From an uncultured Nitrososphaerota archaeon (GTDB lineage: Archaea > Thermoproteota > Nitrososphaeria > Nitrososphaerales > Gagatemarchaeaceae): a DNA stretch of 64,000 nucleotides. A program made the position numbers and the translations under genes. The notes under the pieces are model-generated. The model made no database searches. It had not been told where the DNA came from and worked only from the letters and a program-made list of their open reading frames with translations. The stretch covers positions 754,595-818,594 of the forward strand of contig CAWISW010000003.1 in assembly GCA_963838925.1 (NCBI GenBank), in the 5' to 3' direction. Positions 41,444 to 60,598 of this stretch are shown here, one piece after another. Position 1 is the first letter of the stretch; the number at the start of each line of letters is the position of its first letter.

Positions 41444-41464
41444 CTCCGAGTTGTCTCCGCTCAC

Positions 41465-42607: not shown

Positions 42608-42641
42608 CTTGCTCGTGATACGTGAGCCCAGAGAAACGAAG

Positions 42642-43709: not shown

Positions 43710-43713
43710 ACGA

Positions 43714-44541: not shown

Positions 44542-44542
44542 C

Positions 44543-45460: not shown

Positions 45461-45721
45461 CCTGAAGCCTAGTCCCCTCTCAGCGCGTGCCAACCCACAT
45501 CGGATTCACAAATCACGGCGGACTTCGTTCCACAGCTCATCTCTGGCTCGTTTTCACGACAGGCCGAGGGTTATTATCGGCGCAGTAATTGTTAATGCAA
45601 AGACTATAATACGCTAAACATAAGTAACGCATATTACATATAGAACGCGACAAATGTATCAACCTGAGCCTGAGCGCCTTGGGTGCAAGGTTGGAAGCAG
45701 GGAAGGCGTGGTCGGAGAGGC

Positions 45722-47074
45722 ATGGGCGCCAAACTGAAGCCTAGACGGGCTCGGGGTTCGGTCTCGCAGTTCGCTAGGCTCTTCGCCGGCGTCGGGGCCG
45801 TGGGCTTCCTGACGCACGTCGCAGAGTACTCTTCGTTCATCATCGTCTTGGTCTTCCTGTCGGACAAGCTCACGGTAACCTTCCAATTAGGAACGGTCGG
45901 GTACGTCTTCGTGGGCTCGATTTCGGGCATCTATCTCGTGACTTCCGGCCTCATATCGGTCCCCATGGGTCACCTCTGCGACAAGTACGGGCGCCGGAAT
46001 TTCACGGTCTTTGGATGCGTGCTCGGCGCAGTCTCCCTAGGCTCGCTAATCGTGTCGAACTCGTTCAACAGCCTGCCGGAGTTCATCGGCGCGATGGCGG
46101 TGTCGCTGTGCGCCCTCGGGGTCGCCCACGGGACCTACACTGCGAGCACGCTCTCCTACAGCGGGGACCTTGCGGAGCGCTACAAGGAGATGGGAAAGGC
46201 TTACGGCCTTGTCGACGGCGCGGAGTTCGCCGGCTTCGCTTTCGGTCCCGCATTGGGCACGGCGATCTCGGTCATCACAAAGAGCAGGATTAGCGTCTTT
46301 CAAGACGCTCTCTACCTGATGCTCGCCTCTGCGTTCATCGCATTTTTCCTCATGCCTGAAATCAAGGGCGCCTCATACAAAGCTCACTCAGGAAACGGTT
46401 CCGCAGACCATGTCAACATCGAGTCCCATCCGCTCGGCCTTGACGCGTTGCACGAGGACGAGCACAGCCACAGCGCTTCCTGGGAGGACTACATCAACGC
46501 CTTCAGAACTCCGATCGTCAGCGTCGCGCTCCTCACAACGATAGACGGCGCGATTGGCTTCGCAGGGTTCTTTCAATTCGTTCCCCTCTACGCCAACTCG
46601 CTGGCCGGGTCGATTCCAGTCTTCGGGTCGCTCTACGGCTACTTCCCCTCGATAATGGCCATCACCACGATCACGGTGATGGTTCCCCTCGGCCACAGGC
46701 TCGACAGTGGAAAGAGGAGAATGCCGTACCTCGTGGCTGGGCTGATCGGAAGCTCGATATCGATCGCGGCGGTCTTCTTCAACTCCACGCTCCTGACGTT
46801 CATAGTCGCCTCGTTCGCACATGGGATCTTCATCGCAATGATCAGGATCAGCCAGCTTCTGATCCTAGGGGAGGCGAGCCACCCATCCAACCGGGCTGCG
46901 ATAATGGGGACAAACCACGCGATGGAGCATGCCGGTTACGGGATAGCCGCCATTTCCATTGGGATCCTTGTCGGGTTCCTCGGCTTCGTGAGCGCGTTCA
47001 GAGTCCTTTCGCTCATTCTACTCATAGCCGGGGTCGCGTTCCTCGTCTATGCGGTCAAGAAAAAAGTGCAGTGA
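45722..47074 (+). CDS. MFS transporter with His-rich central loop
   Basis: GHLCDKYGRR (motif A), about 12 TM segments, loop containing HEDEHSHS. Confidence 0.88.
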   Translation: MGAKLKPRRARGSVSQFARLFAGVGAVGFLTHVAEYSSFIIVLVFLSDKLTVTFQLGTVGYVFVGSISGIYLVTSGLISVPMGHLCDKYGRRNFTVFGCVLGAVSLGSLIVSNSFNSLPEFIGAMAVSLCALGVAHGTYTASTLSYSGDLAERYKEMGKAYGLVDGAEFAGFAFGPALGTAISVITKSRISVFQDALYLMLASAFIAFFLMPEIKGASYKAHSGNGSADHVNIESHPLGLDALHEDEHSHSASWEDYINAFRTPIVSVALLTTIDGAIGFAGFFQFVPLYANSLAGSIPVFGSLYGYFPSIMAITTITVMVPLGHRLDSGKRRMPYLVAGLIGSSISIAAVFFNSTLLTFIVASFAHGIFIAMIRISQLLILGEASHPSNRAAIMGTNHAMEHAGYGIAAISIGILVGFLGFVSAFRVLSLILLIAGVAFLVYAVKKKVQ

Positions 47075-47931
47075 TTGCGAGAATGACCGGAGAGCCAAGA
47101 CACAATGCGTCGAGCGTATTGGGTCCGAAGGCGGCGTTAGTGTGGATTGCGTTGGCCTTGGTTGGGATTGTGGTTCTCGCTTTCGTCATGTCGGGGTTTG
47201 CCTTCCCAAGGACCGCGACCTTTTCGACAAGCAGTTCCGGCCAAACCAGCAGCGCCGAAGGCGTGCCGCCCTTCAACCAGACCGTCCTACAAGCGCACCT
47301 GAACAAGCTGGACCGCCTGAATGTGAACGGGGCGGATTCCGACTATTCTGACAACGCCGTCGTTGTCTGGACGGGTGCGTCGGGTACCTCGCTGGCCTAC
47401 GGTGGCACCTACAACGGCCCCAACAGCATCCGGGACCTCCTGGACAGCGTCGTCGGAACGGCGACCAACATGTCGGTCATCATAAGGTCCTTCACCGCCA
47501 AGGCACCGTCGGCCTCGAGGGTCGAAAGCGTCAACGCGACACTCTTTCTCCTTGGGAACAGCACAGTCGTCGGTCAGGTCACTGCGAACATCGACGCCCA
47601 GTATCAGTTCGTCTACACCGATGGCGTGTGGCTGATCTCCCAGGAGAGCTGGGACTACAAGACATTCACGACCCAATTCAACGCGGGGGAGACCACCTTT
47701 CCGCAGTGGCAAACCGTCGGTCCCCCCCTTCCTCAGCGATACTCTGAGAGTCCGTTCAAGAACTGGGTCTACTTCTACGGCGGGGCAGCAGCAGCCGTAG
47801 CCATAGCCGGATACTTGGCTAGCATCCCGGTCTTGGTTAGGCTCCGACCTAAGGCAGCCACAAGCCGGCCTGATGTCCATGAAAACCCAATCCCTCGTGT
47901 ACGTGGTCAAGAAGAGGGTACGGTGACTTGA
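47071..47931 (+). CDS. Membrane-anchored SnoaL/NTF2-like protein (N- and C-terminal TM)
   Basis: QAHL...DYSDNAVVVW...GTYNGPNSIR...WLISQESW. Confidence 0.75.
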   Translation: MIARMTGEPRHNASSVLGPKAALVWIALALVGIVVLAFVMSGFAFPRTATFSTSSSGQTSSAEGVPPFNQTVLQAHLNKLDRLNVNGADSDYSDNAVVVWTGASGTSLAYGGTYNGPNSIRDLLDSVVGTATNMSVIIRSFTAKAPSASRVESVNATLFLLGNSTVVGQVTANIDAQYQFVYTDGVWLISQESWDYKTFTTQFNAGETTFPQWQTVGPPLPQRYSESPFKNWVYFYGGAAAAVAIAGYLASIPVLVRLRPKAATSRPDVHENPIPRVRGQEEGTVT

Positions 47932-47935
47932 TAAT

Positions 47936-48529
47936 ATGATTTTGGAATCCCAAGGAAATGGGTATTCGACCGAATGGGGCTCAAAGAGAGCCCTGTTGTG
48001 GGTAGGCGTCGCTATCGTCGGGATGGTTGTCATGGGCTTTGCGTTGTTCGCATACGTCTCCCCTGGGATTGCATATCGGTCTGCCGGCTTAAGCCAGTCG
48101 GCCGCTTCGAGCGTCCCTCTCTTCAGCCAGTCTGTGCTCCAGGCGCACCTTGACAAATTTGACGACCTCAACTTCAACGGAGCGGCTGGGGACTATTCAG
48201 ACAACGCGGCCGTGATCTGGCAAGGAGCCGCTGGCACCTCGCTAGCGTACGGTGGCATATACTACGGACAAAACGACATCCGGAGTCTCCTCGTCAACGC
48301 GTTCGGCAGGTCTACGAGCATGTGGGTGACCATAATTTCCTTCGATGACAAGCCCTGGTTCAATCCAGGCATGGAACAAGTCAACGCGACGCTGTTCTTG
48401 CAGGGTAACGGCACCACCATCGGTCAGGTCACTGCAAACATCAGCGCCAATTACAAATTCGTGTATTCTAACGGGGTTTGGCAGATTTCACAGGAGAACT
48501 GGATATACGACGCTATCACGACTAACTAG
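47936..48529 (+). CDS. Membrane-anchored SnoaL/NTF2-like protein, tandem paralogue
   Basis: QAHL...DYSDNAAVIW...GIYYGQNDIR...WQISQENW. Confidence 0.75.
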   Translation: MILESQGNGYSTEWGSKRALLWVGVAIVGMVVMGFALFAYVSPGIAYRSAGLSQSAASSVPLFSQSVLQAHLDKFDDLNFNGAAGDYSDNAAVIWQGAAGTSLAYGGIYYGQNDIRSLLVNAFGRSTSMWVTIISFDDKPWFNPGMEQVNATLFLQGNGTTIGQVTANISANYKFVYSNGVWQISQENWIYDAITTN

Positions 48530-48728
48530 GGCGCCGATGACTATCCCCCAGTAATGGCAAGCCCTCGGCCCGCCATTTACCTCGCGGGCACTCGGAGAGC
48601 CAATTCAAGAATATTGTCTACCTCTAATGAGGGATAACGCCCGGCAACAGTCTTCGTAGGTTACCTGGCTACCCTCCCTGTGGTGGTCGAGCTCCGGAAG
48701 GGGCGCGCGAGGAAAGAATCCTGAGCTT

Positions 48729-49226
48729 CTAGGATGTCCTTTTCACCGAAGCAGAACGTGGCTGTTTCTTGACGCCTGAGGCAGGACGAAGAAGGAACCA
48801 GGACACGCACGCTCCATAGTGGCCCTTGAGGTCCTTCGAGAGGAACTTGTAGCTCCGCACCACCTTCCTGCAGCCTGATGTCCCGCACTTGCACTCCATC
48901 GCGAACCCGTCCCAGCCCACGTTCGTCGAGTAGTCGAACGTCACCTCGTCCCCCTCCTCTATCCGGCGGAGCGCTACTATCCTCGTCCTTCCCATGATGA
49001 CACAGTTCGGCTCGCAAGAGTGGTTCATGAACCAGCCCGCCGACCCCTTCTTGGGGACGACGTACCTATCGTAGTCGACCTGGAAGCAGTACTGCCACAG
49101 CTCCTTGGGGATGTCCTTGATCGACCTCTCCTTTCCGGAGTAGTCCCAGACGAGCTCGCCAAGCTCTATCCTTCTCGACGCGTAGACCCCCTTCCCCTTC
49201 GCCGCCGCCTCGCCGATTCGTAGCAT
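48729..49226 (-). CDS. SET-domain protein-lysine methyltransferase with post-SET motif
   Basis: KGKGVYA, FMNHSCEPN, EVTFDY, CKCGTSGC; ATG 49226. Confidence 0.92.
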   Translation of the reverse strand: MLRIGEAAAKGKGVYASRRIELGELVWDYSGKERSIKDIPKELWQYCFQVDYDRYVVPKKGSAGWFMNHSCEPNCVIMGRTRIVALRRIEEGDEVTFDYSTNVGWDGFAMECKCGTSGCRKVVRSYKFLSKDLKGHYGACVSWFLLRPASGVKKQPRSASVKRTS

Positions 49227-49357
49227 CGGCTTCCGCTGGCTTGCGCTCCCAGCATCCTTGGCGTGCAATGTCAGCGGCCCAACCGTCCGGCGAGCCTTTA
49301 AAAGTCGTGCACCGTTAGAATTATCTGAACTAGGTTGCCGCCAGGCGGGTCAAAGAG

Positions 49358-50128
49358 TTGAGCGGGCTGATGGAAGAGAGCGGGGCGCCTCCCCAGAAGG
49401 GCTGGGTCAGGGACGGGATCCTGTCTCTGTTGGCGAAGGGCCCCGGGACCGCCACGGAGATTGCAAGGGAGCTCGGAGTCTCGAAGGCCACCGTCTCGTA
49501 TCACACGAAGGCCCTGATAAGGCGGGACATGATCGAGATCTCCGACATCAAGAGCATAAGGGGAGGCGTCTACAGCAAGACCTACGCGCTCAAGCGCGGC
49601 ACTCTCGCCCTCGCGAGGCGAAGGGGGGAGCAAGGCGGGTCCCTGACGACCCTGGACGACTTCTTCGAGAAGCTCCTCATGAGCTGGCACCTCGAGCCGA
49701 GGAGGAAGCCCGCGGACGAGATAGAGGTCTTCCTCTACCACCTTTACAGGCTGCTGGCGGAGTCCGACTCCCTCGACGACACGATATTCGAGGACTTCGG
49801 GCAGCGCGTCGGGACGGTTCTCATCGCGCCCTCGCTGAAGTTCACCACCATGAAGAGCGGGATCAAGGAGCTCTCGTCCTACCTCGGAGCCGAGGACATG
49901 GCGCAGCTCTCGTCCGAGGAAAGCAAGGGGGGCGAGCCGAGGCTCGTGTGCATGGGGTGCTTCGAAAACAAAGAATATGGGAGCCTCGTTTGCTCCTTCA
50001 CCAAGGGCATGCTCACCGGGGCGATCAGGGCGAAACGGGGCGGGAGGCTGCAGCTCGAGAGGCTCAAGCAGGGCTCCGGCACGTCCGGCTGCCTCTACGC
50101 TGTGAGGACGAGGGGATTCAAGGCTTGA
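49358..50128 (+). CDS. ArsR-type HTH plus V4R-domain transcriptional regulator
   Basis: ATEIARELGVSKATVSYHTKAL HTH; FGQRVG...CMGCFE...CSFTKGML...C V4R pattern. Confidence 0.85.
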   Translation: MSGLMEESGAPPQKGWVRDGILSLLAKGPGTATEIARELGVSKATVSYHTKALIRRDMIEISDIKSIRGGVYSKTYALKRGTLALARRRGEQGGSLTTLDDFFEKLLMSWHLEPRRKPADEIEVFLYHLYRLLAESDSLDDTIFEDFGQRVGTVLIAPSLKFTTMKSGIKELSSYLGAEDMAQLSSEESKGGEPRLVCMGCFENKEYGSLVCSFTKGMLTGAIRAKRGGRLQLERLKQGSGTSGCLYAVRTRGFKA

Positions 50129-50946
50129 GCGCTCGCAGAGGTCAACCTAGCAAGCCCCAGCAGAGCGGGGGGCAAAGCGGCCGCGACCGTCGGTCGCCTT
50201 CGCGCGTGCGGGTCCCTCAAGGAGGAAAGCGACCGCTAGACAGGGACGAGTTCCTCAAGCTCCTCGAGACCAAGCTGGAGGAGAAGTATCAGGACAAGCA
50301 CCCCCTGATGCTCATGCTCTATGCGGGGAAGCTCAGCCCCAAGCAAGTGAGGGCATGGATAATCAACAGGTTCTACCTCCAAAAGAACATCCCGCTCAAG
50401 GACGCCGCGATACTCTCGAACTGCCCAGAGACCGAGGTGAGGAGGCTCTGGATCGGAAGGATACTCAAGCGGGAGGGCCTCGGCGGGAGCATCGGAGACG
50501 TCGAGGGGTGGATAGGGTTCGCGGAGTCGGCGGGCATCGTGAGGAACGACATCCTGAGGGCGAAGTGCCTCCCGGGAGTCAGGTTCGCTGTGGACGGCTA
50601 CGTCAACTTCGCGAGGCGCGCGGACTGGACAGAGGGCGTCGCCGCCTCCCTCATCGAGTACTTCGCGAAGGGGGAGCTCGTCAAGAGGATAGAGGCGTTC
50701 AAGCGGCACTACCCGTGGATCGAGCCGGAGGGCTACAGGTTCTTCATGTCCCGCCTTGGGCAGCTCGACGAGGCCAACGAGACCACCCTCCGCATCGTCC
50801 TACGGTACTGCCAGACGAGGGAGATGCAGCTGCGCGCGATAGACGCGGCCGAGTCGATGGCGGACATCTATTGGAGCCTCCACGACGCCATCTACGTCGC
50901 CTACGTCATCCAGGACAGGCCGCTCTCTGACTCTTTGTCAGGCTGA
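50125..50946 (+). CDS. PqqC-like protein with catalytic residues substituted
   Basis: HP...GKLS...AWIINRFYLQ..IPLKDAAILSNCP...RRLW..RI...PGVRFAVDGYVNFAR...YWSLHDA; TTG 50125 overlaps the regulator stop (alternative start GTG 50206). Confidence 0.88.
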   Translation: MSARRGQPSKPQQSGGQSGRDRRSPSRVRVPQGGKRPLDRDEFLKLLETKLEEKYQDKHPLMLMLYAGKLSPKQVRAWIINRFYLQKNIPLKDAAILSNCPETEVRRLWIGRILKREGLGGSIGDVEGWIGFAESAGIVRNDILRAKCLPGVRFAVDGYVNFARRADWTEGVAASLIEYFAKGELVKRIEAFKRHYPWIEPEGYRFFMSRLGQLDEANETTLRIVLRYCQTREMQLRAIDAAESMADIYWSLHDAIYVAYVIQDRPLSDSLSG

Positions 50947-50965
50947 GCGGATGTCACCGTAGGGC

Positions 50966-52879
50966 TCAGCTCCTCCTTGCAGCCTTCCTCAGCGACCTGT
51001 TCTCTATCAGGAGCACCGTAACGACGGCTGCCAAGATGCCCGCTGCCGCTATGGGGACGAAGCTCTCCCACGACGGGGCAACGGGAGGAGGGACCGCGAA
51101 CGCCATGAGGTCTCCCGGGAGCCCGCCCGGGAACGCGCCGTATGAGGGGGCCCCGATGAGCTGGTAGAGATAGACCTGCCCGTCCGCGGCGGAGCCGATC
51201 GTGGGGCTGTCGTAGAGCGGCGGACCGACGTACAGGTCGTAGACCTGCTTCCCCGTCTTCGCGTTGAGGATGTGGATGCTCCCGTCGAGGCTCCCGGCGA
51301 ATATCAGGCCGTTGCTCGCGGTGAGCCACCCTCGGTAGGGGACCGTCGGGAGGAAATAGCTCCATGCGACCGTCCCGTTGGAGGCGTGGATGGCGTAGAT
51401 GGTCGTGTTGGCCTGCTGCCAGTCCGGGGTGAGGTCTGTCACACCCCACACCTGGGCTCCCTCGGTGCTCACCGCAGAGACCTTCCCCGAGGTGCAGAAG
51501 TTGTAGCTCGCCACGTAGATCATCGAGTAGGCGTAGGCGATGTCCGACTCGATGGCCCCGTTCTCCCCTGGGCACTGCCTGAACTCCTGAGTGGAGGGGT
51601 AGTTGATCCACGGAAGGGTGCCGGAGTAGTTGCCCGTGACGACGTAGTTCGCATTGCCGGTCAGATTCCTGACGACCGACGGCGGGTCGAAGTACCAGAG
51701 CAGCTTCCCTGTCAGGGCGTCCATCGCGTAGACGTAGCCGTTCTTGCATCCCTTGAAGACCGCCTCGTGCACGCTGCCCCCTGAGGTGACGTTGCCCAGC
51801 ACTGTGTTCCAGCCGCAGTCGAAGTCGTAGAGGTCGTGCGGGGTGGCCTGATAGAACCAGATCATGCGGCCGTTCGTCGCGTTGAGCGCGATGACGGAGT
51901 CGGCGTAGAGGTCAGGCCCGGGCCTGTAGGTGCCGTTCCAGTCCGGGGAGGCCTGCGAAGTGGAGACGTACACGATCCCGTGCCTGGTGTCCACCACGGG
52001 GTCTCCGAAGCTCGGCCCCGCGCCCGCGAGCGGCCCGCTTGCCCCCGGGCCGTTGAGGCTCAGCGTCCCCCAGTCGCCGCTCACCGGGGCCACGTTACCG
52101 TGGCACGAGGAAGGCGGGCACGAGTCCACGTCCCAGCTCGCGTTGCCCCCCGCGGGCGGCGTCACGTACCATCTCCAGAGCAGGTTGCCGCTCGTCACGT
52201 CGTAGGCGGCAACGAAGCCGCGCCCCACGTTTGTCCCTTCGGAGACCGAACTCGTCCATATCATCGTGTTGCCGTCGAAGACCGGAGGGACGCCCATCCC
52301 GTCGTAGAATCCGGCGTTCCCCGGTATGTCCTTGCAGATGTCGGAAATCTTCATCGCCACGCTGCCGGTCTCCGCGTCGAGGGCTATCACCGAGCAGTCG
52401 GGCAGGCTGACCCAGACGTCACCGCGGTAGTAGTTGATTCCGTGCATGTGCCCGACCAGCAGGCCGAGCGGCAACCCCGTGGTGTTGAGCTGGGCAGCAT
52501 AGGACCATATGACTGTGCCCGTCTCCCCGTTGATGGCGTAGACCGTGAGGTAGTTCGAGAAGAGGTAGACGGTGCCGTTCACAACGAGCGGAGGAGAGAT
52601 CGACCCTTGCCCGGTAGCGTTGAGGCCCGGGACGTTGTACTCGGCGGGGAAGGGGAGGGTCCACGCGACCTGGAGGTTTTGGACGTTCGACGCGCCCACT
52701 TGGCTCTGGGCGACGTAGTTCGTGTGGTTGGAGTTCGAGTTCATCGTGGTCCAGTCCGCCGCGGCTCCCGCGCTTGCGTTGGGCTGCGACTCGGCGGGAG
52801 CGGGCGGAACCGTGAGGCTCATGAAAAGGAGGAGGAGCAGCCCTGCCACGACCGGCTTCCACGCTTGAGCCCTCTTCAC
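50966..52879 (-). CDS. Secreted PQQ-binding beta-propeller dehydrogenase 1 with C-terminal membrane anchor
   Basis: Signal peptide, NVQNLQVAW, repeated AxxxxxGxxxW blades, RGFVAAYD, RPGPDLY, WFYQATPHDLYDFD, CPG, C-terminal TM and basic tail; GTG 52879. Confidence 0.9.
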   Translation of the reverse strand: MKRAQAWKPVVAGLLLLLFMSLTVPPAPAESQPNASAGAAADWTTMNSNSNHTNYVAQSQVGASNVQNLQVAWTLPFPAEYNVPGLNATGQGSISPPLVVNGTVYLFSNYLTVYAINGETGTVIWSYAAQLNTTGLPLGLLVGHMHGINYYRGDVWVSLPDCSVIALDAETGSVAMKISDICKDIPGNAGFYDGMGVPPVFDGNTMIWTSSVSEGTNVGRGFVAAYDVTSGNLLWRWYVTPPAGGNASWDVDSCPPSSCHGNVAPVSGDWGTLSLNGPGASGPLAGAGPSFGDPVVDTRHGIVYVSTSQASPDWNGTYRPGPDLYADSVIALNATNGRMIWFYQATPHDLYDFDCGWNTVLGNVTSGGSVHEAVFKGCKNGYVYAMDALTGKLLWYFDPPSVVRNLTGNANYVVTGNYSGTLPWINYPSTQEFRQCPGENGAIESDIAYAYSMIYVASYNFCTSGKVSAVSTEGAQVWGVTDLTPDWQQANTTIYAIHASNGTVAWSYFLPTVPYRGWLTASNGLIFAGSLDGSIHILNAKTGKQVYDLYVGPPLYDSPTIGSAADGQVYLYQLIGAPSYGAFPGGLPGDLMAFAVPPPVAPSWESFVPIAAAGILAAVVTVLLIENRSLRKAARRS

Positions 52880-52993
52880 TGGCGTTCTCGCCTTCGTCGT
52901 CGGAGTCGTCCACTTTAAGCTTGGAGTTGTCGCCCTTGCGCCTGAAACTCTCTCGGAACGGTCATAAAGGGCAGAATACTCCGAGACCTGACG

Positions 52994-54484
52994 TTGGAAG
53001 CGCTCGCCAAGCGGCGCAAGTGGTTCTCGCTGGCCGCGGTGAACCTCGGCAACTTCGTCCCGCCCTTGGACACTGGGATAATGTCCCTCATCCTTCCGAC
53101 GATCTCCATCAGCCTGAAGGCCCCGGTCGGGGTCGTCCTCTGGGTCCCGCTGGAGTCCCTCATCATCACAGCCGCGTTCATGCCCATCTTCGGGAAGTTC
53201 TCCGACCGTCACGGAAGGAAGCGATACTTCGTCCTAGGCCTGGCGCTCTTCTCGGTCGGAGCCTACCTCTCCGGTAACTCCCTGACCATCTATGAGCTCC
53301 TGATCTACAGGGTCGTCCAGTCCTTGGGAGGGGCGTTCATCCTTTCGAACGGCAGGGCCCTGATCGTCGACGCCTTCGAGCCCAGGGAGCGGGGATTCGC
53401 CCTCGGGACCCACATCTCGGTGATCTACATCGGGATGACCGTCGGCGTAGCGCTGACGGGGAGCGTCGTAACGATAACCCAGTCTGTCGGCTGGCGGTAC
53501 GTCTTCTACGCCAACTCCCTGATAGCCGCGGCGGCGATTCCCATCTCTCTGATAGCGCTGAGGGAGAGCGAGAAGAACCTCGCGATCAAGACGGATTGGC
53601 TCGGGTCGGTCTTCTTCGCGGGGGCCCTCGGCTCCGCCCTGGTCGCCTTGACCGCGGCAGCCAACGGCCTGTCCGCGATCAACTGGTACATCCAGCAGCT
53701 CTACATCCCCTTCCTCCACTACTACGTGTACCTGAATCAAGAGTATTCCATCCCACTCTACGCCATAGGCGCCGTCGGGATAGCGTCCGCGGTCCTCTTC
53801 GTCCTTCGCGAGACCACCACCGCGCAGCCGCTCATCAACTTCAACACCTTCAGGACGAACTCCATGTTCGCGTCGACCAACTTCTCGGCCCTCTTCGTGT
53901 ACATGGGGCACTATGGCACGCTGATACTGCTCTCGTTCTATCTCGAGCTCATCAGGGAGTTCAGCCCACTGACCGCGGGGCTCCTGCTCACCGTCGAGCC
54001 GCTCTCGGTCACTGTCTTCGCCGTCTTCGGGGGGTGGATCGCGAGCAGGACTTCCAGCCGCGACCCCGCTGTGGCGGGCTGTGTGATTGCGATGGCCGCA
54101 CTTCTCCTTCTCAGCACCCTTAACCAGGAGACCTCGACCACTACTATCGCCTTCCTCTTGGGAATGCTGGGGGCGGGAGTCGGCATCTTCGCCCCCACGA
54201 ACACCAACGCCAACCTGGCTTCGGTCCCGGCTGGCGACCGCGCGATGTCCAACGGCGTACTGGGGATGATGAGGTCGACGGGTCAGAGCGTCAGCCTTGC
54301 GATAGGGACGATATTCATCGGGCTCTACCTGTTTGGGGCCGCGCTCCAGGGGAACGTCTCGATCGCGAAGTACATCTCAGCGGTCGACCTGTTCTTCGTC
54401 GTGGGGGCCGTGTTGGTGGCGATAGCGACTATCTTCGCGTTCAGAGGGCGCGAGTCCGCGGAGGCCCACCACGGCCCCCCGTAG
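52994..54484 (+). CDS. MFS transporter, DHA2 (EmrB/QacA) family
   Basis: LDTGIM...LPTI, FGKFSDRHGRKR, RVVQSLGGA, ERGFALG, GWRYVFYAN; about 14 TM segments. Confidence 0.9.
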   Translation: MEALAKRRKWFSLAAVNLGNFVPPLDTGIMSLILPTISISLKAPVGVVLWVPLESLIITAAFMPIFGKFSDRHGRKRYFVLGLALFSVGAYLSGNSLTIYELLIYRVVQSLGGAFILSNGRALIVDAFEPRERGFALGTHISVIYIGMTVGVALTGSVVTITQSVGWRYVFYANSLIAAAAIPISLIALRESEKNLAIKTDWLGSVFFAGALGSALVALTAAANGLSAINWYIQQLYIPFLHYYVYLNQEYSIPLYAIGAVGIASAVLFVLRETTTAQPLINFNTFRTNSMFASTNFSALFVYMGHYGTLILLSFYLELIREFSPLTAGLLLTVEPLSVTVFAVFGGWIASRTSSRDPAVAGCVIAMAALLLLSTLNQETSTTTIAFLLGMLGAGVGIFAPTNTNANLASVPAGDRAMSNGVLGMMRSTGQSVSLAIGTIFIGLYLFGAALQGNVSIAKYISAVDLFFVVGAVLVAIATIFAFRGRESAEAHHGPP

Positions 54485-56384
54485 GGGTCCGCCTCCTCAG
54501 CAGCGTGTACATCGCCAGGATCACGACCAAGACCCCCAGCACGATGATGACCGGCTGCTCCAATCCTCCCCCACCGCTGCTTACTACGCCGCAGTTAGTG
54601 GTGCAGGTGAGCGTGTACGCGACCACGACTCCCGGCGTCGCTCCGCCCAAGTCGCCGCCCCCTGCGGGTGCGAACAAGGTCATGACTCCCTCGGTGTTGG
54701 TGCCGATGGACACTCCCGCCGCCCCTATGCCTCCAAGGGAGAAGCTCTTGAGCAGCACTCCCGACTGCTCGTTGAACATGTAGAGGATGCCCGCCCTGTC
54801 GACCACGTACAGCACGCCTCCGCTCACCACGGCCGAGGATCCCTGATACCTGTTGGGGAGGTTGTAGTGCCAGATTGGCTGGCCGGTCGAGAGGTTGATC
54901 GCGTATACGGTCCCGTTCTCGGCCGCTGCGGGGTCGTCGGTATAGATGTACCCGTTGATCGTCTGACCCTTGTACGGGTAAGGCCCTGGCGTCATGAGGC
55001 CGCACGCGTTCTGGGTCACGACGAAGAGCGTGTTCCCGTCGACGGCGGGTGCCATCTCGATCCCTCCGTCAGGCCCCGGGCAGATGTCCTTGTTCCCGAA
55101 GAGCGCCTGGGACGCGTTAAGGTTGGCGGTCGACGTCAGGCCGTCGTTCCAGTTGTTGGAGGACTTGGGCCCGACCATTATCGGCGCGTACACCGGCTTC
55201 CCGGTGGCGGCGTTCAGGACGTAGATGTCGTTGTTCTTTGAGGCCTGTATGACGACCTGAACCGACGTCCCGTTGACGGTTATGTCCGAGAGGCTGTCGC
55301 TCCACCCCCCCTCGTGCTCCGTGATGTCGTGCGAGGACATCTGGTAGTACCAGATCATCTTCCCGGTCGCGGAGTTGAGCGCAACGATGCAGTCCGTGTA
55401 GAGGTTGGGGCCCGGCCTCAGCGAGGCCTCGTAGCCGTCTGACGGGTGCCCGGTGGAGAAGTAGAGTACGCCCGTCTTGTTGTCCACCGCTATGAGCCCC
55501 CAGGCCGCCCCTCCCCCGATGAGGGCCACGTCCTGCGGGGAGGTGCCCCAGTCGCCCTTGTACGGGGTTATGTTGCCCGGTGGCTGGCCATAGTTCACGG
55601 TCGTCCCGTTGGCGAGCGTGACCATGTCCTCGTAGTCCCAGTTGGGGTCTGCGGTGATCGCGGACGGTACCGAGTACCATATCCACGACATGTTCCTCGT
55701 GTTGATGTTGTAGGCTGCGACGAAGCCCCTCCCCCCGTAGTCGGTGGTGGAGGCTCGGAGGATCAGGTTGTCACCGACAAGGATGGGGGCCTTCTCCCCG
55801 TAGTACGTGCCCGTGTTCCCCTGGATGTTCGCAGCGATCGGAGGTATCGTCCACTCGAGGGCCCCGGTAAGGGCGTTGAGCGCGTAGACCGCAGTGTTGG
55901 ACGCGGTCACGTAGATCGTCTGGTTGTAGTCGGATATCCCGCTTATCACATACGCCCCGGACCACCACTTTTCTCCGATGAACGACGTCATGTTCACCTG
56001 ATAGTCCCAGGCCTGGGTGCCCGTCTCGGTGTTCAGGGCGATTATGCGATTGTAGGGGGTCGCCAGGTACTCGAAGCCGTTCACGACCAGCGACTGGGCC
56101 TCGATGCCGAGAGCAGGAGGCGCCCCAGGGATGCTGTACGGGTTGACGGGCACCTGGTAGATCCATGTCGGCTGAAGGTACTGGACGTTGCTCGCGGTGA
56201 TGACCGTCTGCGGGTCGTAGTTAGTGTTCTGAAAGTCATAGGACGATGCTCCCCAGTTCGGAAACGGGGAGGGGGTGGCGGTCTGGGCGTTCACCATCGT
56301 ATTGGAAAAACCGCCGAACGCGATGAGGAGAGTGACCGCTACTATCGTTAGTCTGGCGACAAATCGTCGAAGACCCATCGTCAA
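54441..56384 (-). CDS. Secreted PQQ-binding beta-propeller dehydrogenase 2 with C-terminal membrane anchor
   Basis: Signal peptide, ITASNVQYL, ALNTETGTQAW blades, GRGFVAAY, GGGAAW, RPGPNLY, WYYQMSSHD, CPGPDGG, C-terminal TM and RRR tail. Confidence 0.9.
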   Translation of the reverse strand: MTMGLRRFVARLTIVAVTLLIAFGGFSNTMVNAQTATPSPFPNWGASSYDFQNTNYDPQTVITASNVQYLQPTWIYQVPVNPYSIPGAPPALGIEAQSLVVNGFEYLATPYNRIIALNTETGTQAWDYQVNMTSFIGEKWWSGAYVISGISDYNQTIYVTASNTAVYALNALTGALEWTIPPIAANIQGNTGTYYGEKAPILVGDNLILRASTTDYGGRGFVAAYNINTRNMSWIWYSVPSAITADPNWDYEDMVTLANGTTVNYGQPPGNITPYKGDWGTSPQDVALIGGGAAWGLIAVDNKTGVLYFSTGHPSDGYEASLRPGPNLYTDCIVALNSATGKMIWYYQMSSHDITEHEGGWSDSLSDITVNGTSVQVVIQASKNNDIYVLNAATGKPVYAPIMVGPKSSNNWNDGLTSTANLNASQALFGNKDICPGPDGGIEMAPAVDGNTLFVVTQNACGLMTPGPYPYKGQTINGYIYTDDPAAAENGTVYAINLSTGQPIWHYNLPNRYQGSSAVVSGGVLYVVDRAGILYMFNEQSGVLLKSFSLGGIGAAGVSIGTNTEGVMTLFAPAGGGDLGGATPGVVVAYTLTCTTNCGVVSSGGGGLEQPVIIVLGVLVVILAMYTLLRRRTPTGGRGGPPRTRAL

Positions 56385-56731: not shown

Positions 56732-57265
56732 ATGCTGACTTCAGAGAGCCCATCACGAGGCGAGGCGAAGGCGAATGAGACGGGGGTCCTGCGCAGCTTC
56801 CTCTCGCTCTACTCCTCTTGGAAGACACTCCTGACCAACGCGGCACTTTTCGCGGTGTACTACGCCGCGTTCTACGAGTCAATCGTCCGTTCAAACGCGG
56901 GCTACTTTCTCCTCGCGATCCCCTACTACCTCTTCCTCTTGCTCATCCTCGCGTCCTCGGTCCTGGCGACCGTCGCGGCTTCGTACCTCAGGGCCTCGCG
57001 GAGGGCGCGCAGCCTGACGGGGGTCGCTCAGAGCCCGGTCTCCGTCGCGCTTGGGGCCGTGGTGGCGAGCTGTGCCTGCAGCCTGCCCCTCGTCGGCCCC
57101 GTGCTCTACTTCGTAGGGCTCAACGCCGTCGAGGTGAGCGGAGTCGAGTCGTTCCTCGCCTCGTACCAGGAGGCCATCATATGGGCGATCGTGGTGCTCG
57201 ACGCGTGCGGCATCCTCTACTACCTTAGGCTGGTCTCCCGCTCAAGGCTGGGCGGCAGCACCTGA
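56732..57265 (+). CDS. Membrane protein with intramembrane ASCACSLP motif
   Basis: About four TM segments; Cys pair followed by Pro inside a hydrophobic segment. Confidence 0.7.
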   Translation: MLTSESPSRGEAKANETGVLRSFLSLYSSWKTLLTNAALFAVYYAAFYESIVRSNAGYFLLAIPYYLFLLLILASSVLATVAASYLRASRRARSLTGVAQSPVSVALGAVVASCACSLPLVGPVLYFVGLNAVEVSGVESFLASYQEAIIWAIVVLDACGILYYLRLVSRSRLGGST

Positions 57266-57352
57266 GCGGCCATTGCCAGCCCGCAGAAACCGACTCCTTC
57301 TAACCCTTCGATGCGTTCTTAAGACAGCGTAGGGGTGGCAACTGTCGCATAG

Positions 57353-57922
57353 ATGTACGGCGTTTCCTACGAGGCGTATCAGAAGGCGGTCGCAAAGAGG
57401 CGTCTTACCCGACAGGAGGGCCCTCAGGAGGGCGAACCCGAAGCCGCGCCCAACGAGATTCAAGGCGGATCCAACAAGATCCGGAACGCAATCATCGTGG
57501 GCGTCATCGTCATCATCTTGGGGGTGACGCTGGGAATCGTCCTTCAACCACAAGCGGCGACCGGGCTCACGATAAGCCTGAGCTCGGGGAAGGTGATAGA
57601 GGCGAATAGCTCCGACGTGGTGCTGGCGATCGACCTTACGATCCACAACAACACGAACAAGAACATGACCTACTATGGTGCTTCGTGGGCGGTCTCTCAG
57701 GACGGGAACGGGCTCGACTCGGGGGTATTCTTCGAGCACTACGCCATGCCTCCGGGGATGACCCGGAACCTGAACGAGACGGTCGACATCAACCTTGGAG
57801 ACGTGGTCCTCACCCAGCCTCTCGGCCAATCTGGGACGTGGAGGTTCCAGGGCTCTGCAACCGTTGACGTGGCTGGCGCGAACCAGACACAAGGGTTCGA
57901 CTTTAACTTCTCGACGACGTAG
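57353..57922 (+). CDS. Single-pass membrane protein with extracellular beta-sandwich (LEA/Ig-like) domain
   Basis: One TM followed by alternating beta-strand pattern, e.g. LTIHNNTNKNM. Confidence 0.65.
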   Translation: MYGVSYEAYQKAVAKRRLTRQEGPQEGEPEAAPNEIQGGSNKIRNAIIVGVIVIILGVTLGIVLQPQAATGLTISLSSGKVIEANSSDVVLAIDLTIHNNTNKNMTYYGASWAVSQDGNGLDSGVFFEHYAMPPGMTRNLNETVDINLGDVVLTQPLGQSGTWRFQGSATVDVAGANQTQGFDFNFSTT

Positions 57923-57944
57923 CCGCTAGAACGCGGCCTGGGCC

Positions 57945-57980
57945 GTTAATAACACCGTGAACGAGATTAGTTAACACCGT
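57945..57980. promoter_or_regulatory. Candidate operator GTTAAT-N19-GTTAAC and direct repeat TAACACCGT x2 upstream of ZIP
   Basis: Half-sites at 57945-57950 and 57970-57975; 9-mer repeats at 57950 and 57972 (22 bp apart). Confidence 0.45.
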
Positions 57981-58014
57981 ATCCGTTAAATGCCCGGACT
58001 AGCGCCGGCGGCAC

Positions 58015-58761
58015 ATGGACTTCGCGGAGACCCTCGTGCTCTCTTCGATCATGGGGCTCTCTATCTACATCTCGCTCCCCATAGTCCTTCACAGGAGGAC
58101 AGGCGAGCGGAGCTCGCGAATCCTTACAGCGGTCGCCATCGGGATTCTGATATTCCTGATGGGGGACATCTTCACGAACGCGGCCGCCTCCCTGTACAAC
58201 GGCTCGCTGTACGGTTTCGGTTCCTCTGCAGCCAACGACGGCGTCTTCGCGGCCGCCTTCGGGGCCGGGTTCCTCGTCCTCTTCCTCGCCGAGAGCAGGT
58301 CGAAGGAGGGGCTCTCCCCCGCGAAGCTCGCGCTGGTGATCGCGATCGGGATGGGATTCCAGAACCTCACGGAAGGGCTGGTCTTCGGCTCTCTCAGCAT
58401 CGCCGTGGGGCTCTCCGGGGCCGCCCTGGTCGTGCTGGTGGGCTTCATCTTCCAGAACATCACGGAGGGCTTCCCCATCGCTTCCCCTTTCATCGGCCGG
58501 TCCGAAGGTAAGACCGGCGTGATGCTCCTCCTGTTCCTGATTGGAGGCATCCCCACCATAGTCGGCGGCGCCGTCGGCTTCTATTACAACTCTATCTCGC
58601 TAGACCTTGCCTTCGACGGGATCGCGATCGGCGCAATCCTCTACGCGATCCTCCCAATGCTCAAGGCGCTCTTCAGGGAGTCTTCGCCGCGCATGCAGCG
58701 GCTCAGCTACCTCGGCGTGTTCCTGGGCTTCTTGCTCGGATTCCTGGTGAACTTGGTGTGA
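58015..58761 (+). CDS. ZIP (ZupT/GufA) family metal permease
   Basis: About eight TM segments; FQNLTEG and FQNITEG signature helices. Confidence 0.88.
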   Translation: MDFAETLVLSSIMGLSIYISLPIVLHRRTGERSSRILTAVAIGILIFLMGDIFTNAAASLYNGSLYGFGSSAANDGVFAAAFGAGFLVLFLAESRSKEGLSPAKLALVIAIGMGFQNLTEGLVFGSLSIAVGLSGAALVVLVGFIFQNITEGFPIASPFIGRSEGKTGVMLLLFLIGGIPTIVGGAVGFYYNSISLDLAFDGIAIGAILYAILPMLKALFRESSPRMQRLSYLGVFLGFLLGFLVNLV

Positions 58762-58780
58762 CGGGTTCGAGGCTTGCTGC

Positions 58781-60598
58781 TTGAACAGGCGGAAGTTCAT
58801 CAAGATAGCCGTCGGAGGCGCGATAGGCGGAGGGGCGGTGGGCCTGGGCGTCTCAAGGCTGATCGCGCCGTCCAAGAGCGCCCCTTCATCGAAGGCGCAA
58901 CTCGACTCCGCCACCCTCACGAAGTTCGTGGACCCGCTCCCGATCCCCCAGGTTGTTTCTCCTTCAACGCCCGGAGGGAACGATTTCGTAGTCACCATGA
59001 CTCAGTTCAAGCAGCAGCTCCACAGCCAGCTCCCACCGACCGAGGTCTGGGGATACAACGGCTCCTATCCGGGGCCGTCCTTCGAGGCCTCGAGAGGGAC
59101 CCCGATATCGGTCACATACGCCAACGCCTTGCCCAAGGTGCACCTGTTTCAGGACGCGGTGGACGAGACAGTCTCCCACGGCTACGGCTTTCCCGACGTC
59201 CGCACGGTCGTCCATCTCCACGGCGCGGAGGTGAAGGCCGACAGCGACGGCAACCCCACGGCTTGGTTCTCCTTCAACTTCGAGACCACCGGCGCCGGCT
59301 GGTCGCAGAAGGCATACACCTACCCCAACTCTCAGGAGGCCACGACGCTCTGGTACCATGACCACGCAATCGGCACGACCCGTCTGAACATCTGCGCGGG
59401 GCTGGCGGGGTTCTACTTCCTAAGGGACCCTGGCATCCAGTTCGAAGCGGGCCTACCGGGAGGCCCCATGGACCCACCGATCATGAAGAAGGGTGTGGTC
59501 GTCGGCGGGCCGTACGAGGTCCCGCTGTTGATCCAGGACAGGCTCTTCAACTCGGACGGGTCGATCCTCTATCCGAACCAGGGCGTCAACCCGAGCATCC
59601 ACCCTGAATGGATCCCCGAATACTTCGGCGACACCATATTGGTGAACGGTAAGGTCTGGCCTTACCTCAACGTGGAGCCGCGCAAGTACCGCTTCAGGTT
59701 CCTCGACGGGTCGAACGCGCGATTCTACGACCTCTCCTTCGCGAACAAGCCCGTGAAGATCCATCAGATTGGGACCGACGGCGGGTACCTCTCGGCTCCT
59801 GTGCCGATCGCCGACATCTTCCTCGCCCCCGCGGAACGAGCCGACACAATAGTCGACTTCTCGGCCCTCGAGGTCGGCGACAAGGCTATCCTCTACAACA
59901 CCGCGCCCGGGCCCTATCCCGGGGGCGACACGCCGGACACCGAAACGGTCGGGCAGATAATGCAGTTCAACGTGGTCGAATCGCAGGGCGCGGACGCCAG
60001 CGTGCTTCCGCCCGCGCTGGTGCCGGTCCCGTCGCTTCCGCTCCTGGGCGAAAGCGTGAGCGTGACTAGGAACCTGTATCTGGTCGAGTACGACACAGCG
60101 GCAGGTCCGATCGTCAGCCTCCTCAACAACCTCGATTTCGGCAGCCCAATCCAAGAAGACCCCGTCCTCGGCTCGACGGAAGTCTGGCAGCTCATCAATC
60201 TCACCGAGGACGCGCACCCCATCCACCTGCACCTGATACAGTTCCAGATCTTGAACCGGCAGGAGTTCGACGCAGACAAGTACTTCACGGACTATTTGGC
60301 CGCAAACCCCAACCTGGCCTCTGGAGCGGGGATCGGGACGACCCCGGACACGACTCCGTACTTGGAGGACGCTCCCTTCGCGGTGCCCCCTGAAGAGGCA
60401 GGGTGGAAGGACACCGTCAAGGCCTACCCGGAACTGATAACCCGCCTGATCGTGCGGTTCGCCCCAAGGACGGGCTCCAACTTTTCTTTCGACGCCACGG
60501 CTCCTCCCAACTACGTGTGGCACTGCCACATCCTCGAGCACGAGGACAACGACATGATGCGGCCCTACCAAGTCCTTCCCCAAGGCGCTTCGACCTAG
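58781..60598 (+). CDS. Tat-exported multicopper oxidase (CotA/bilirubin oxidase-like)
   Basis: NRRKFIK twin-arginine signal; HLHG, WYHDH, HPIHLH and HCHILEHEDNDMM copper motifs. Confidence 0.95.
   Translation: MNRRKFIKIAVGGAIGGGAVGLGVSRLIAPSKSAPSSKAQLDSATLTKFVDPLPIPQVVSPSTPGGNDFVVTMTQFKQQLHSQLPPTEVWGYNGSYPGPSFEASRGTPISVTYANALPKVHLFQDAVDETVSHGYGFPDVRTVVHLHGAEVKADSDGNPTAWFSFNFETTGAGWSQKAYTYPNSQEATTLWYHDHAIGTTRLNICAGLAGFYFLRDPGIQFEAGLPGGPMDPPIMKKGVVVGGPYEVPLLIQDRLFNSDGSILYPNQGVNPSIHPEWIPEYFGDTILVNGKVWPYLNVEPRKYRFRFLDGSNARFYDLSFANKPVKIHQIGTDGGYLSAPVPIADIFLAPAERADTIVDFSALEVGDKAILYNTAPGPYPGGDTPDTETVGQIMQFNVVESQGADASVLPPALVPVPSLPLLGESVSVTRNLYLVEYDTAAGPIVSLLNNLDFGSPIQEDPVLGSTEVWQLINLTEDAHPIHLHLIQFQILNRQEFDADKYFTDYLAANPNLASGAGIGTTPDTTPYLEDAPFAVPPEEAGWKDTVKAYPELITRLIVRFAPRTGSNFSFDATAPPNYVWHCHILEHEDNDMMRPYQVLPQGAST

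Follow-up and report, generated by a model that had tools for sequence, protein, structure and literature searches.

A PqqC-like protein with a remodelled pocket, encoded with an HTH-V4R regulator beside PQQ-family dehydrogenases in Thaumarchaeota

Described relatives of the locus

The nearest described counterpart of the protein at the centre of this study is PqqC (EC 1.3.3.11) of Klebsiella pneumoniae (1OTV, 1OTW, 3HLX). The two have the same fold and length, 42% identity and the same basic cradle, but in the protein encoded in our window (the whole 64,000-nucleotide stretch of DNA that was analysed) H24, Y53, D83, H84, T146, Y175 and K214 are replaced, and the partner is a regulator and not PqqB, PqqD or PqqE. 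The superfamily fold is also that of the CADD di-metal oxidases (1RCW, 8VA9), the E-value being 2e-5 to CADD 1RCW versus 3e-59 (phmmer) to PqqC 1OTV/1OTW. CADD-like paralogues, here group D, are present in related archaea, and their Glu/His metal ligands are absent from the window's protein at the aligned positions.

For the regulator the comparison is with MsvR, presented as methanogen-specific in its description (PMC3729527). Like MsvR, the window's regulator, a thaumarchaeal one, has an N-terminal winged helix-turn-helix (wHTH) and a C-terminal V4R-type domain, the latter with conserved cysteines that may correspond to those of MsvR. Its promoter also holds a conserved element beside the TATA box, an arrangement that would suit an autorepressor. 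The element is a different one, GTTAGAATTATCTGAAC as against the TTCGN7-9CGAA inverted repeat given in that text for MsvR, and the window's regulator is always paired with a PqqC-like gene; its match to the NCBIfam MsvR model (NF053755; residues 15-247, E 3.7e-16) scores 59.6 bits, below the 220-bit cut-off. After HTH proteins, the best structural match of its C-terminal domain is the phenol-sensing V4R domain of PoxR/DmpR (5FRU, 5FRX; E about 8e-4, TM 0.47, about 16% identity), with H-NOX also matched in the structure comparison. PoxR is, however, a sigma-54 activator, whereas the window's regulator is of the wHTH repressor type.

Bacteria that scavenge PQQ without synthesizing it furnish another comparison. 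In PMC12124388 and PMC11331073 these are E. coli, with the outer-membrane TonB-dependent transporter PqqU, and M. extorquens, with the periplasmic group-2 binding protein PqqT. They resemble the archaeon in having PQQ-family dehydrogenases without biosynthesis genes, and PqqT, a non-enzymatic protein dedicated to binding PQQ, sets a precedent for one that holds the cofactor (same sources). The window's protein differs in being cytoplasmic by sequence, in having the PqqC fold and in being archaeal, and the one binding protein compared gave no match to PqqT (9B1U). As for these archaea, the ancestor of mesophilic Thaumarchaeota is said in PMC10640624 to have 'gained the PQQ synthase, pqqC', and two genome papers have taken the thaumarchaeal pqqC homologue at face value. 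No published description of the changed PqqC residues or of the regulator pairing was found in a search taking in few subscription journals and no supplements.

The locus and its conservation

The regulator gene (49358..50128, + strand) encodes 256 amino acids with a wHTH of ArsR/MarR type (Pfam HTH_5/HTH_20 at residues 20-60) and a V4R-like sensor domain, an MsvR-type architecture. Pfam V4R gave no match in it at E 0.01 or below, and the V4R call rests on the MsvR model and the fold (AF2 model, pLDDT 77.5). Of its cysteines, C201, C212 and C245 never vary among 32 relatives and C198 hardly does; the genome has only one such regulator gene. Upstream, a TATA-box-like TTTAAAA (49297..49303, + strand) read from the sequence is a putative promoter for regulator and PqqC-like gene together, orthologues having boxes of TTTATA/TTTAAA type at the matching upstream position. 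Between it and the regulator start is the conserved 17-mer GTTAGAATTATCTGAAC (49314..49330, + strand), a candidate autoregulation operator, which the window matches only once when up to 3 mismatches are allowed. It is near-identical upstream of the regulator in close loci and present there in 5/5 same-genus genomes, the reversed control pattern giving 0 matches. The regulator would probably repress its own operon through this 17-mer, lying as it may over the transcription start.

The PqqC-like gene (50125..50946, + strand) begins, as the earlier note had described, on a TTG (50125-50127) overlapping the regulator's TGA (50126-50128), a 4-nt start/stop overlap. That start is plausible: the called proteins of close relatives begin at the same 'xSA' position, one of them with ATG, and the regulator TGA is overlapped by GTG or TTG in five of six close loci and by CTG in the sixth. 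The remainder of the gene order is also as that note had read it. DH1 (50966..52879, - strand; PF01011 E 1.5e-53) runs towards the PqqC-like gene, from which its stop codon, at 50966, is separated by a 19-bp gap, and is followed by an MFS transporter of DHA2/EmrB-like type (52994..54484, + strand; PF07690 E 2.7e-37; TIGR00711 E 8e-40, below the model cut-off) and DH2 (54441..56384, - strand; PF01011 E 8.5e-52). The PF01011 matches identify the eight-bladed PQQ propeller domain in both dehydrogenase homologues, whose PQQ dependence is predicted from family; against the methanol/ethanol family TIGR03075 they score 206 (DH1) and 198 (DH2) bits, below the 480-bit cut-off. The best solved relative of DH1 is XoxF 6DAM (E 6.5e-34, a distant alignment). 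Both dehydrogenase homologues carry a hydrophobic anchor at the C-terminus, and the N-terminus of DH1 resembles a signal peptide. The start of DH1 is most likely the GTG at 52877-52879, ahead of the signal-peptide-like stretch, and a start at 53212 was rejected in its favour. The divergent DH1/MFS promoter region (52911..52977) holds two blocks, CACTTTAAGCTTGGA (52911-52925) and CTCGGAACGGTCATAAAGGGCAGAAT (52952-52977), conserved in an alignment of 15 orthologous intergenic regions. In close loci the MFS gene adjoins DH1 and DH2 orthologues stand behind the MFS gene, the former arrangement being altered in L043 and L087.

How constant is the association of these genes? The regulator is directly upstream of the PqqC-like gene on the same strand in 12/12 genome loci and in 34 of 43 metagenome loci; in the remaining nine the sequence reaches no more than 332 nt upstream, and with at least 800 nt the figure is 33/33. 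Where sequence continues beyond the PqqC-like gene, a DH1 orthologue comes next: this holds for all 11 such genome loci and, given 1300 nt or more downstream, for all 16 metagenome loci. Regulator and PqqC-like gene occur together in 20 genomes of a 201-genome sample of the order, one without the other in three and neither in 178, and in a 61-genome sample of the family the 13 genomes with the PqqC-like gene are the same 13 that have a DH1 orthologue (at least 51% identity), all these genomes being related and so not independent observations. The coupling of a PqqC homologue to an HTH-V4R regulator beside PQQ-type dehydrogenases, which had been put forward from this one locus with synteny in relatives as its check, is thus strongly borne out. 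In a second family, regulator homologues adjoin a different PqqC-like group in convergent orientation.

Genes for making PQQ were sought in the whole genome (1.84 Mb, 3 contigs, 87% complete) with searches run without a positive-control genome, and no pqqB, pqqD or pqqE-grade match was found; in the order, by searches of the same kind, PqqE over the cut-off and PqqB were each found in 0/201 genomes. Thus the earlier proposal of a missing pqqABDE holds genome-wide for pqqB, pqqD and pqqE, but the PqqA search, which likewise gave no match in the 1.84 Mb, shows little, as its controls also gave none. With no pqqA/B/D/E seen in the genome PQQ would not be made by the known route, and uptake of it, or of a late precursor or derivative, from the surroundings would be needed.

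The PqqC-like protein and its clade

The PqqC-like protein is a heme-oxygenase-like helical bundle whose AF2 model (pLDDT 90), in the comparison with PqqC-PQQ complexes that had been suggested, finds two of these, 3HLX and 1OTW, as its top Foldseek matches (rmsd 1.9-2.0, TM 0.85, at the identity given above). It scores 227.6-227.8 bits against TIGR02111, below the 240-bit equivalog cut-off. The ORF is intact and the copy single, no second pqqC having emerged from the whole genome. Each of the replacements claimed earlier (H24Q, D83K, H84R, H154L, Y175F, D186A, K214M) is present in the phmmer alignment to 1OTV/1OTW, where H24, Y53, H84, T146, Y175 and K214 of bona fide PqqC read Q, L, R, I, F and M. 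So are all nine residues proposed to hold PQQ (Y23, R50, Q54, K60, R80, Y128, R157, R179, Q182), but within the clade Y23, Y128 and Q182 vary, so that 'PQQ-shaped minus catalysis' would be too simple a description of the pocket.

H84, Y175, K214 and H24 are said, from the work of Klinman and Schwarzenbacher, to have their roles in the oxidase chemistry of PqqC. Among the 74 nearest clusters (47-92% identity), which belong to group A, R84 and L154 are in all 74, position 175 is F in 72 and I in two, and K214 and H24 are in none. By comparison, the 46 bacterial canonical PqqCs further down the same list have Y175, K214 and T146 without exception, with position 84 being H in 42 and Q in four, and position 154 H in 31, M in 13, Q in one and I in one. 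Across group A the replacements are of H24 by Q/I/V/L, Y53 by L, D83 by K/R, H84 by R, T146 by I/F/Y, Y175 mostly by F and K214 by M/L, while conservation of R50, Q54, K60, R80, R157 and R179 reaches 90% or more in group A and in the canonical PqqCs alike. At 21 positions the residue that canonical PqqC conserves is all but missing from group A, and residues have been gained: D93 (75/75), E153 (75/75) and H222 (69/75).

Of the 'catalytic losses' earlier proposed, the absence of His84 and Tyr175 equivalents stands, but H154L is ordinary PqqC variation: H154 is variable among the 46 and its change not diagnostic, and with Q at 84 in four of them and M at 154 in 13, changes at these two positions do not by themselves prove lost activity. 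Furthermore, by their PDB entry titles 3HLX (Y175F) and 3HML (H154S) are complexes with PQQ, so a single change at Y175 or H154 leaves PQQ binding possible. A PqqC-derived protein with a changed active site is supported, but the term 'pseudo-PqqC' undersells one that has gained invariant polar D93 and E153 and, mostly, H222; these would fit a new function as well as a mere binder.

The gene is under purifying selection and not decaying, as dN/dS is 0.05-0.19 (NG86, 28 close pairs, dS 0.37-1.4) where decay would have it near 1. In the tree group A is one clade (SH-aLRT 97). The archaeal clade around it (96) includes another group, whose residues are near-canonical, so the residue state of group A is derived. 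The sister archaeal group keeps H24, H84, Y175, R179 and K214, and its genomes are also without PqqE and PqqB; none of the archaeal PqqC-like groups has the full canonical residue set. Judged from sequence, selection maintains the gene as a functional one, it belongs to a PqqC branch peculiar to archaea, and its remodelling is a family trait.

Possible roles of the PqqC-like protein

The reading we prefer, at roughly even chances, is that the protein still binds a PQQ-like polycarboxylate, does not perform the canonical oxidation and serves the cofactor supply of DH1. The earlier interpretation of the module is partly supported: the changed active site, the coupling to the regulator beside PQQ-type dehydrogenases, the lack of the other pathway genes and the selection on the gene bear it out, and PQQ binding, loss of catalysis and contact or signalling with the regulator stand as proposals. 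The organism would take PQQ, a late precursor or a derivative from its surroundings. In Klebsiella PqqC the carboxylates of PQQ/AHQQ are held by an arginine/lysine cradle. This cradle is strictly kept here (R50, Q54, K60, R80, R157, R179) and would bind such a molecule in the cytoplasm, while the residues of oxidase chemistry and of the polar pocket side have been swapped for a new fixed set, and the eight-electron AHQQ-to-PQQ oxidation would no longer be carried out. Probably made from one promoter together with its MsvR-type wHTH-V4R regulator, with which there may be cross-talk, and travelling with one type of apparently exported, membrane-anchored PQQ-family dehydrogenase, the protein may supply DH1 with cofactor by holding, salvaging or reporting it. 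In a chemical-proteomics study PQQ probes are reported to have enriched PqqC of P. putida (PMC13088180).

There are observations on the other side. D93, E153 and, in most members, H222 might form a catalytic site of a new kind, or they might occupy the pocket. With the dehydrogenases exported, scavenged PQQ could load outside the cell, and a cytoplasmic binder would be unneeded. Upstream of DH1/MFS and of DH2 the 17-mer GTTAGAATTATCTGAAC does not occur, so control of DH1 and DH2 by the regulator would be conjectural.

We consider it unlikely, if by no means fanciful, that the protein is an oxidase finishing PQQ or a PQQ-like quinone from an imported late intermediate or a non-PqqE route, with the MFS transporter exporting the product to DH1 and DH2. 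Cytoplasmic enzyme, transporter and exported dehydrogenases would make a coherent locus, the carboxylate cradle is kept, four of the 46 otherwise canonical PqqCs have H84Q, and a PqqC-type substrate may exist given the five canonical residues of the sister group in genomes lacking PqqE and PqqB. Yet H24, Y53, H84, T146, Y175 and K214 are all replaced together and the replacements are fixed, the TIGR02111 score is below its cut-off, and no candidate upstream pathway was seen. Arginine, moreover, is a poor general base.

Another idea, in our estimation rather doubtful, is of a neofunctionalized enzyme unrelated to PQQ and acting on some other carboxylated aromatic, be it a molecule sensed by the V4R domain or a product or substrate of DH1. 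It would accommodate the 21 family-discriminating positions, the gained residues among them, the likeness of the sensor domain to phenol-binding PoxR, and the many chemistries hosted by the TENA/PqqC/CADD fold (Foldseek matches); it sits poorly with a gene that strictly co-occurs with, and adjoins, one for a PQQ-family dehydrogenase, with the six retained basic/polar residues common to PqqC and with 42% identity to PqqC over the whole fold. Decidedly improbable is a protein that binds no ligand, its pocket closed by new side chains (for instance R84 with E153), and acts on the V4R regulator as a protein partner or modulator: the pairing does outlast the gene-order change between the two families, co-occurrence is near-perfect (the 20, 3 and 178 above) and start and stop overlap by 4 nt, but the invariance of R50, K60, R80, R157 and R179 is difficult to account for unless an anionic ligand is bound, and no fused form was found among longer proteins (4 matches, none with an HTH or V4R domain). 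A decaying, functionless remnant of a lost pqq operon, to which a lone pqqC homologue without pqqA/B/D/E might have pointed, is refuted at the sequence level by the low dN/dS and by new residues that are fixed in 74 clusters, the most distant at 47% identity, the ORF being intact and the synteny conserved.

Returning to the preferred reading, a cofactor-supply role could be extended, tentatively, to an archaeal cofactor-economy module of regulator and PqqC-like protein, in which an imported PQQ-type molecule (it would be PQQ, PQQH2, an amino-acid adduct or a late precursor) might be captured or repaired in the cytoplasm by the PqqC-like protein and then either passed on for export to surface quinoproteins or reported to the regulator. 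If true, this would be how the abundant heterotrophic Thaumarchaeota of soil and the dark ocean run many PQQ-type dehydrogenases without a PQQ pathway. Since their proposed heterotrophy depends on such dehydrogenases, the source of the cofactor decides their reliance on PQQ-producing bacteria. PqqE and PqqB in 0/201 genomes, the lack of a full canonical set and the rewired pocket of the soil group contradict the reading of pqqC as a synthase, and published claims of own PQQ synthesis in these archaea need checking; the tight pairing of PqqC-like protein and sensor-regulator offers a concrete two-protein system to test.

A minor observation concerns the N-terminus of the PqqC-like protein, where residues 1-35 are a basic tail, disordered in the AF2 model; distant relatives begin near residue 35.

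Residue signature and descent of the PqqC-like protein

The protein encoded at 50125-50946 (+) is of the PqqC fold, selected and rewired, and its gene lies in the geometry of co-transcription with a sensor regulator. Klebsiella PqqC was matched at E 3e-59 in a phmmer search of the PDB, with a gap-poor alignment, and residues are numbered here as in the PDB chain, presumably the numbering of the literature, with Y23-H24 lying within DFYHIHHP. From an alignment by eye the earlier note had held that the residues contacting PQQ look retained and the catalytic ones replaced. On rechecking the phmmer alignment, every substitution that it named (H24Q, D83K, H84R, H154L, Y175F, D186A and K214M) and every retention that it listed (Y23, R50, Q54, K60, R80, Y128, R157, R179 and Q182) is present in the window's protein. 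H154L however is of no diagnostic value as a mark of loss, M being found at 154 in 13 of 46 canonical PqqCs, and Y23, Y128 and Q182 are variable within the archaeal clade. The protein scores 227.6 bits with TIGR02111 against a cut-off of 240. Its AF2 model, built on 26 relatives, has a pLDDT of 90 with residues 1-35 disordered, and the top structural matches are the PqqC-PQQ complexes 3HLX and 1OTW (rmsd 1.9-2.0), followed by apo 1OTV (rmsd 2.7), a closed-versus-open difference to which little weight is given. A CADD-like, di-metal reading was rejected: the Glu/His metal ligands are missing and the match to 1RCW is at E 2e-5, as against 3e-59 to PqqC.

The best 120 database clusters were compared as two sets, the first 74 (47-92% identity), whose members with a source name are from archaeal MAGs, and the next 46 (44-50%), whose named members are bacterial PqqC. 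R84 and L154 are in all 74 of the nearest clusters, position 175 is F in 72 and I in two, and neither K214 nor H24 occurs in any. In the 46 canonical clusters Y175, K214 and T146 are each universal, H24 is in 45, and position 84 is H in 42 and Q in four. The boundary between archaeal and canonical sets is sharp. Compared column by column, 21 positions are conserved in canonical PqqC with the residue nearly missing from the archaeal set, which has gained D93 and E153 (each 75/75, the window counted in) and H222 (69/75); for R50, Q54, K60, R80, R157 and R179 conservation reaches 90% or more in either set. Codon alignments of the window's gene with 11 orthologous loci gave dN/dS of 0.05-0.19 for 28 close pairs (Nei-Gojobori; dS 0.37-1.4), more distant pairs being near saturation. 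This is not the neutral drift that the earlier note had raised as a sign of decay and, taken with the signature across the 74 clusters, it led to rejection of a pseudogene reading.

Descent was considered with a quick IQ-TREE run on 50 sequences, rooted with CADD-like paralogues, the stars of which are to be taken with some caution. The window's archaeal clade, group A, is single (SH-aLRT 97) and nested in a larger archaeal clade (SH-aLRT 96) that is sister to 16 of the 17 bacterial PqqCs sampled. Since the enclosing clade also holds groups B and C, the group A state is derived. Group B has H24, H84, Y175, R179 and K214 together with R50M; group C carries R50W and R179L, and its position 84 is either H or Y. 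The full canonical residue set is kept by none of the archaeal groups seen. At least three more PqqC-like groups, B, C and D, are found in a second family, whose genomes are small (loci L013-L035), D being CADD-like with Glu/His at the metal-ligand positions, and in one of these loci (L018) a group C gene, a V4R regulator gene and a CADD-like gene adjoin one another.

PQQ dehydrogenase clusters in these archaea have been published, the pqqC homologue being called PQQ synthase in the available text (PMC10640624, PMC7300363). In the literature on PqqC, or on PQQ biosynthesis in marine Thaumarchaeota, covered incompletely and supplements aside, neither the changed residues nor the pairing with the regulator was found described. 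Public annotation of group A (protein clusters P0054, P0010 and P0044) is inconsistent: NCBI has 'PqqC' for one Geothermarchaeales MAG member and 'hypothetical protein' for several from Nitrososphaerales, and JGI has 'pyrroloquinoline-quinone synthase' for many.

Gene order and co-occurrence

The host genome is 1.84 Mb in three contigs and 87% complete. By ORF and domain searches a SET-domain gene (48729-49268, -) is followed by the gene for a regulator that has a wHTH and a long C-terminal domain (49358-50128, +) and by the PqqC homologue, whose TTG start overlaps the regulator's TGA, as the earlier note had read it; the overlap is of four bases. Its order for what follows also stands: convergent with the PqqC homologue is DH1, a PQQ-family propeller protein ending at 50966 (-), then a DHA2-type MFS transporter (52994-54484, +) and DH2, a second propeller protein (54441-56384, -). 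Taken whole, the long ORF of DH1 would run 218 bp into the MFS gene. Its start was set at the GTG at 52877-52879 because this precedes a signal-peptide-like stretch and because the alignment of 15 orthologous DH1-MFS intergenic regions was anchored at this predicted start.

Recurrence of the arrangement, a check proposed with the original claim, is plain: the regulator gene is directly upstream on the same strand in 12/12 genome loci, persisting down to 53-59% identity for the PqqC-like protein and 32-37% for the regulator, and a DH1 orthologue is convergent in all 11 that have downstream sequence. Among 43 metagenome group A loci the regulator is seen in 34, including 33/33 with at least 800 nt upstream (in the other nine upstream sequence stops within 332 nt), and DH1 in 26, among them all 16 whose downstream sequence is 1300 nt or longer. 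In the second family regulator homologues (30-34% identity) adjoin group C genes in convergent orientation, so that the pairing of regulator and PqqC-like protein has outlived rearrangement; group B genes there adjoin a propeller gene.

The following counts are descriptive and not a test, the sampled genomes being related and hence not independent. Across 201 genomes of the order the PqqC-like gene is in 22, the regulator in 21, both in 20 and neither in 178. The exceptions are two genomes with the PqqC-like gene only (G120, and G150 where it is cut at a contig end) and one, G111, 71% complete, with a cut match to the regulator only. Of 61 genomes sampled from the family, 13 have the PqqC-like gene, and exactly these 13 have a DH1 orthologue (at least 51% identity); two have distant propeller genes without it, and 46 have neither.

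Some departures deserve mention. In one soil subgroup (L093, 887-1577) the PqqC-like gene is separated from DH1 by two inserted ORFs, a small one of RHH type and one that is PIN-like, by eye likely a toxin-antitoxin pair. One relative's regulator was matched as three pieces in different frames and another's DH1 orthologue in two (L038 7184-7914; G183:C64:41945-42669; G216:C3:1110827-1112624); these are frameshifts or assembly errors. The SET-domain gene, which in loci of the same genus points away from the regulator gene, is kept also in same-genus genomes without the module. It is the sole neighbour that those genomes share with the window, there being no other synteny, which makes them uninformative as to the module's borders. 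G+C is 0.53-0.59 over window positions 38000-50000, against 0.62-0.67 across the first 38 kb. Among the sequencing runs listed as containing sampled words none was of RNA; four were of soil DNA, all from a single study, two of them with at least half of the words and two with a small share.

The regulator and its upstream element

In Pfam the wHTH is the only domain of the regulator matched. The NCBIfam MsvR model aligns to residues 15-247 at E 3.7e-16, far under its cut-off, and JGI labels several relatives 'predicted hydrocarbon binding protein'. A sensor fold of the V4R type is supported by an AF2 model (pLDDT 77.5) in which the C-terminal half finds its matches in PoxR's phenol-sensing domain and in H-NOX proteins. 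Three cysteines are invariant among 32 relatives and a fourth nearly so, and there is no second such regulator gene in the genome.

About 10 nt after a TATA-like box upstream of the regulator gene is GTTAGAATTATCTGAAC (49314-49330), a 17-mer conserved in close loci and occurring once in the window. It is upstream of the regulator gene in 5/5 same-genus genomes, a reversed control pattern having no matches there. MsvR, in the available text of PMC3729527, represses its own gene, with boxes that overlap the BRE/TATA or the start site, and by this analogy the conserved element here is a candidate operator of the regulator. The upstream regions of DH1/MFS and of DH2 contain no copy at up to three mismatches and carry conserved promoter blocks of their own. 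A one-mismatch copy at G000:C3:100493-100509 (L049, 1501-1517) in the window's own genome is flanked on one side by the divergent gene for an FbpA-like ABC binding protein (SBP_bac_6) and on the other by the gene for an ABC ATPase, and in same-genus G216 the 17-mer is also at two paralogous binding-protein genes (L055, L058). The sites could form a small regulon including an importer, which is a lead only: the reversed control matched once in the window's own genome, and extra sites in G229 and G221 adjoin other, unrelated genes. Near the PqqC-like genes of the marine-type family no close homologue of the FbpA-like protein was found.

Ligand, pathway and dehydrogenases

The PqqC-like gene is strictly tied to one type of exported dehydrogenase, and the known PQQ pathway is missing. 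The genome has a single PqqC-like gene, with no intact second copy of the kind that the earlier note wanted looked for. Its claim that pqqB, pqqD and pqqE are absent extends from the window to the 1.84 Mb, 87% complete genome, where PqqB and PqqD gave no match and PqqE only generic radical-SAM matches (up to 74 bits, cut-off 381); for PqqA the search was silent everywhere, control genomes included, and is uninformative. Among the 201 genomes of the order PqqE passed its cut-off in none (best 151.7 bits), and PqqB was found in none. The PqqE model is at least fold-sensitive, as it gave sub-cut-off matches in all 14 control genomes, none of them a PQQ producer. The window's own genome has about seven PQQ-family propeller genes.

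H24, Y53, H84, T146, Y175 and K214 have roles in PqqC chemistry, and their joint loss would speak against the canonical oxidase reaction, while the basic cradle that is kept would suit a PQQ-like polycarboxylate as ligand. A PqqC-derived holder of PQQ is reasonable since the PqqC mutants Y175F and H154S were crystallised with PQQ (PDB entry titles) and since PQQ probes enriched PqqC in a 2026 chemical-proteomics study (PMC13088180, available text). The chances that the protein is such a holder, without the oxidase reaction, would be about even. The weak point of any cytoplasmic handling of the cofactor is that dehydrogenases outside the membrane could take up scavenged PQQ directly.

It is unlikely that a finishing oxidase is still active on a precursor that is imported or made in an unconventional way; near-canonical group B does exist in genomes equally without the pathway, and the six lost residues weigh the other way. 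Just as doubtful is a new enzyme with another substrate, to which the gained polar residues would be congenial and the kept cradle less so. A partner of the regulator without any ligand is a distinctly improbable reading: complex prediction for the two proteins (score 0.01, mark 0.32) is neither for nor against pairing, and in the four longer proteins that a fusion search gave (PqqB-PqqC, rSAM-PqqC and another) there is neither an HTH nor a V4R domain. Decay, faced with a signature fixed in 74 clusters and such low dN/dS, is hardly credible.

DH1 has an Asp-x-Asp, the lanthanide-type signature. It lies in HDLYDFDCGW, aligned to HDEWDYDG of XoxF (6DAM), and at the position of XoxF's CC the vicinal Cys-Cys is missing; DH2, aligned by eye, has HDITEHEGGW (Glu-His-Glu) at the matching place. 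Downstream of DH2 (56732-60598) are genes for a cysteine-bearing conserved membrane protein and a 248-aa multi-pass membrane protein that is ZIP-like by eye, neither with a Pfam match, and for a multicopper oxidase of three domains. The two membrane-protein genes are behind DH2 in relatives too.
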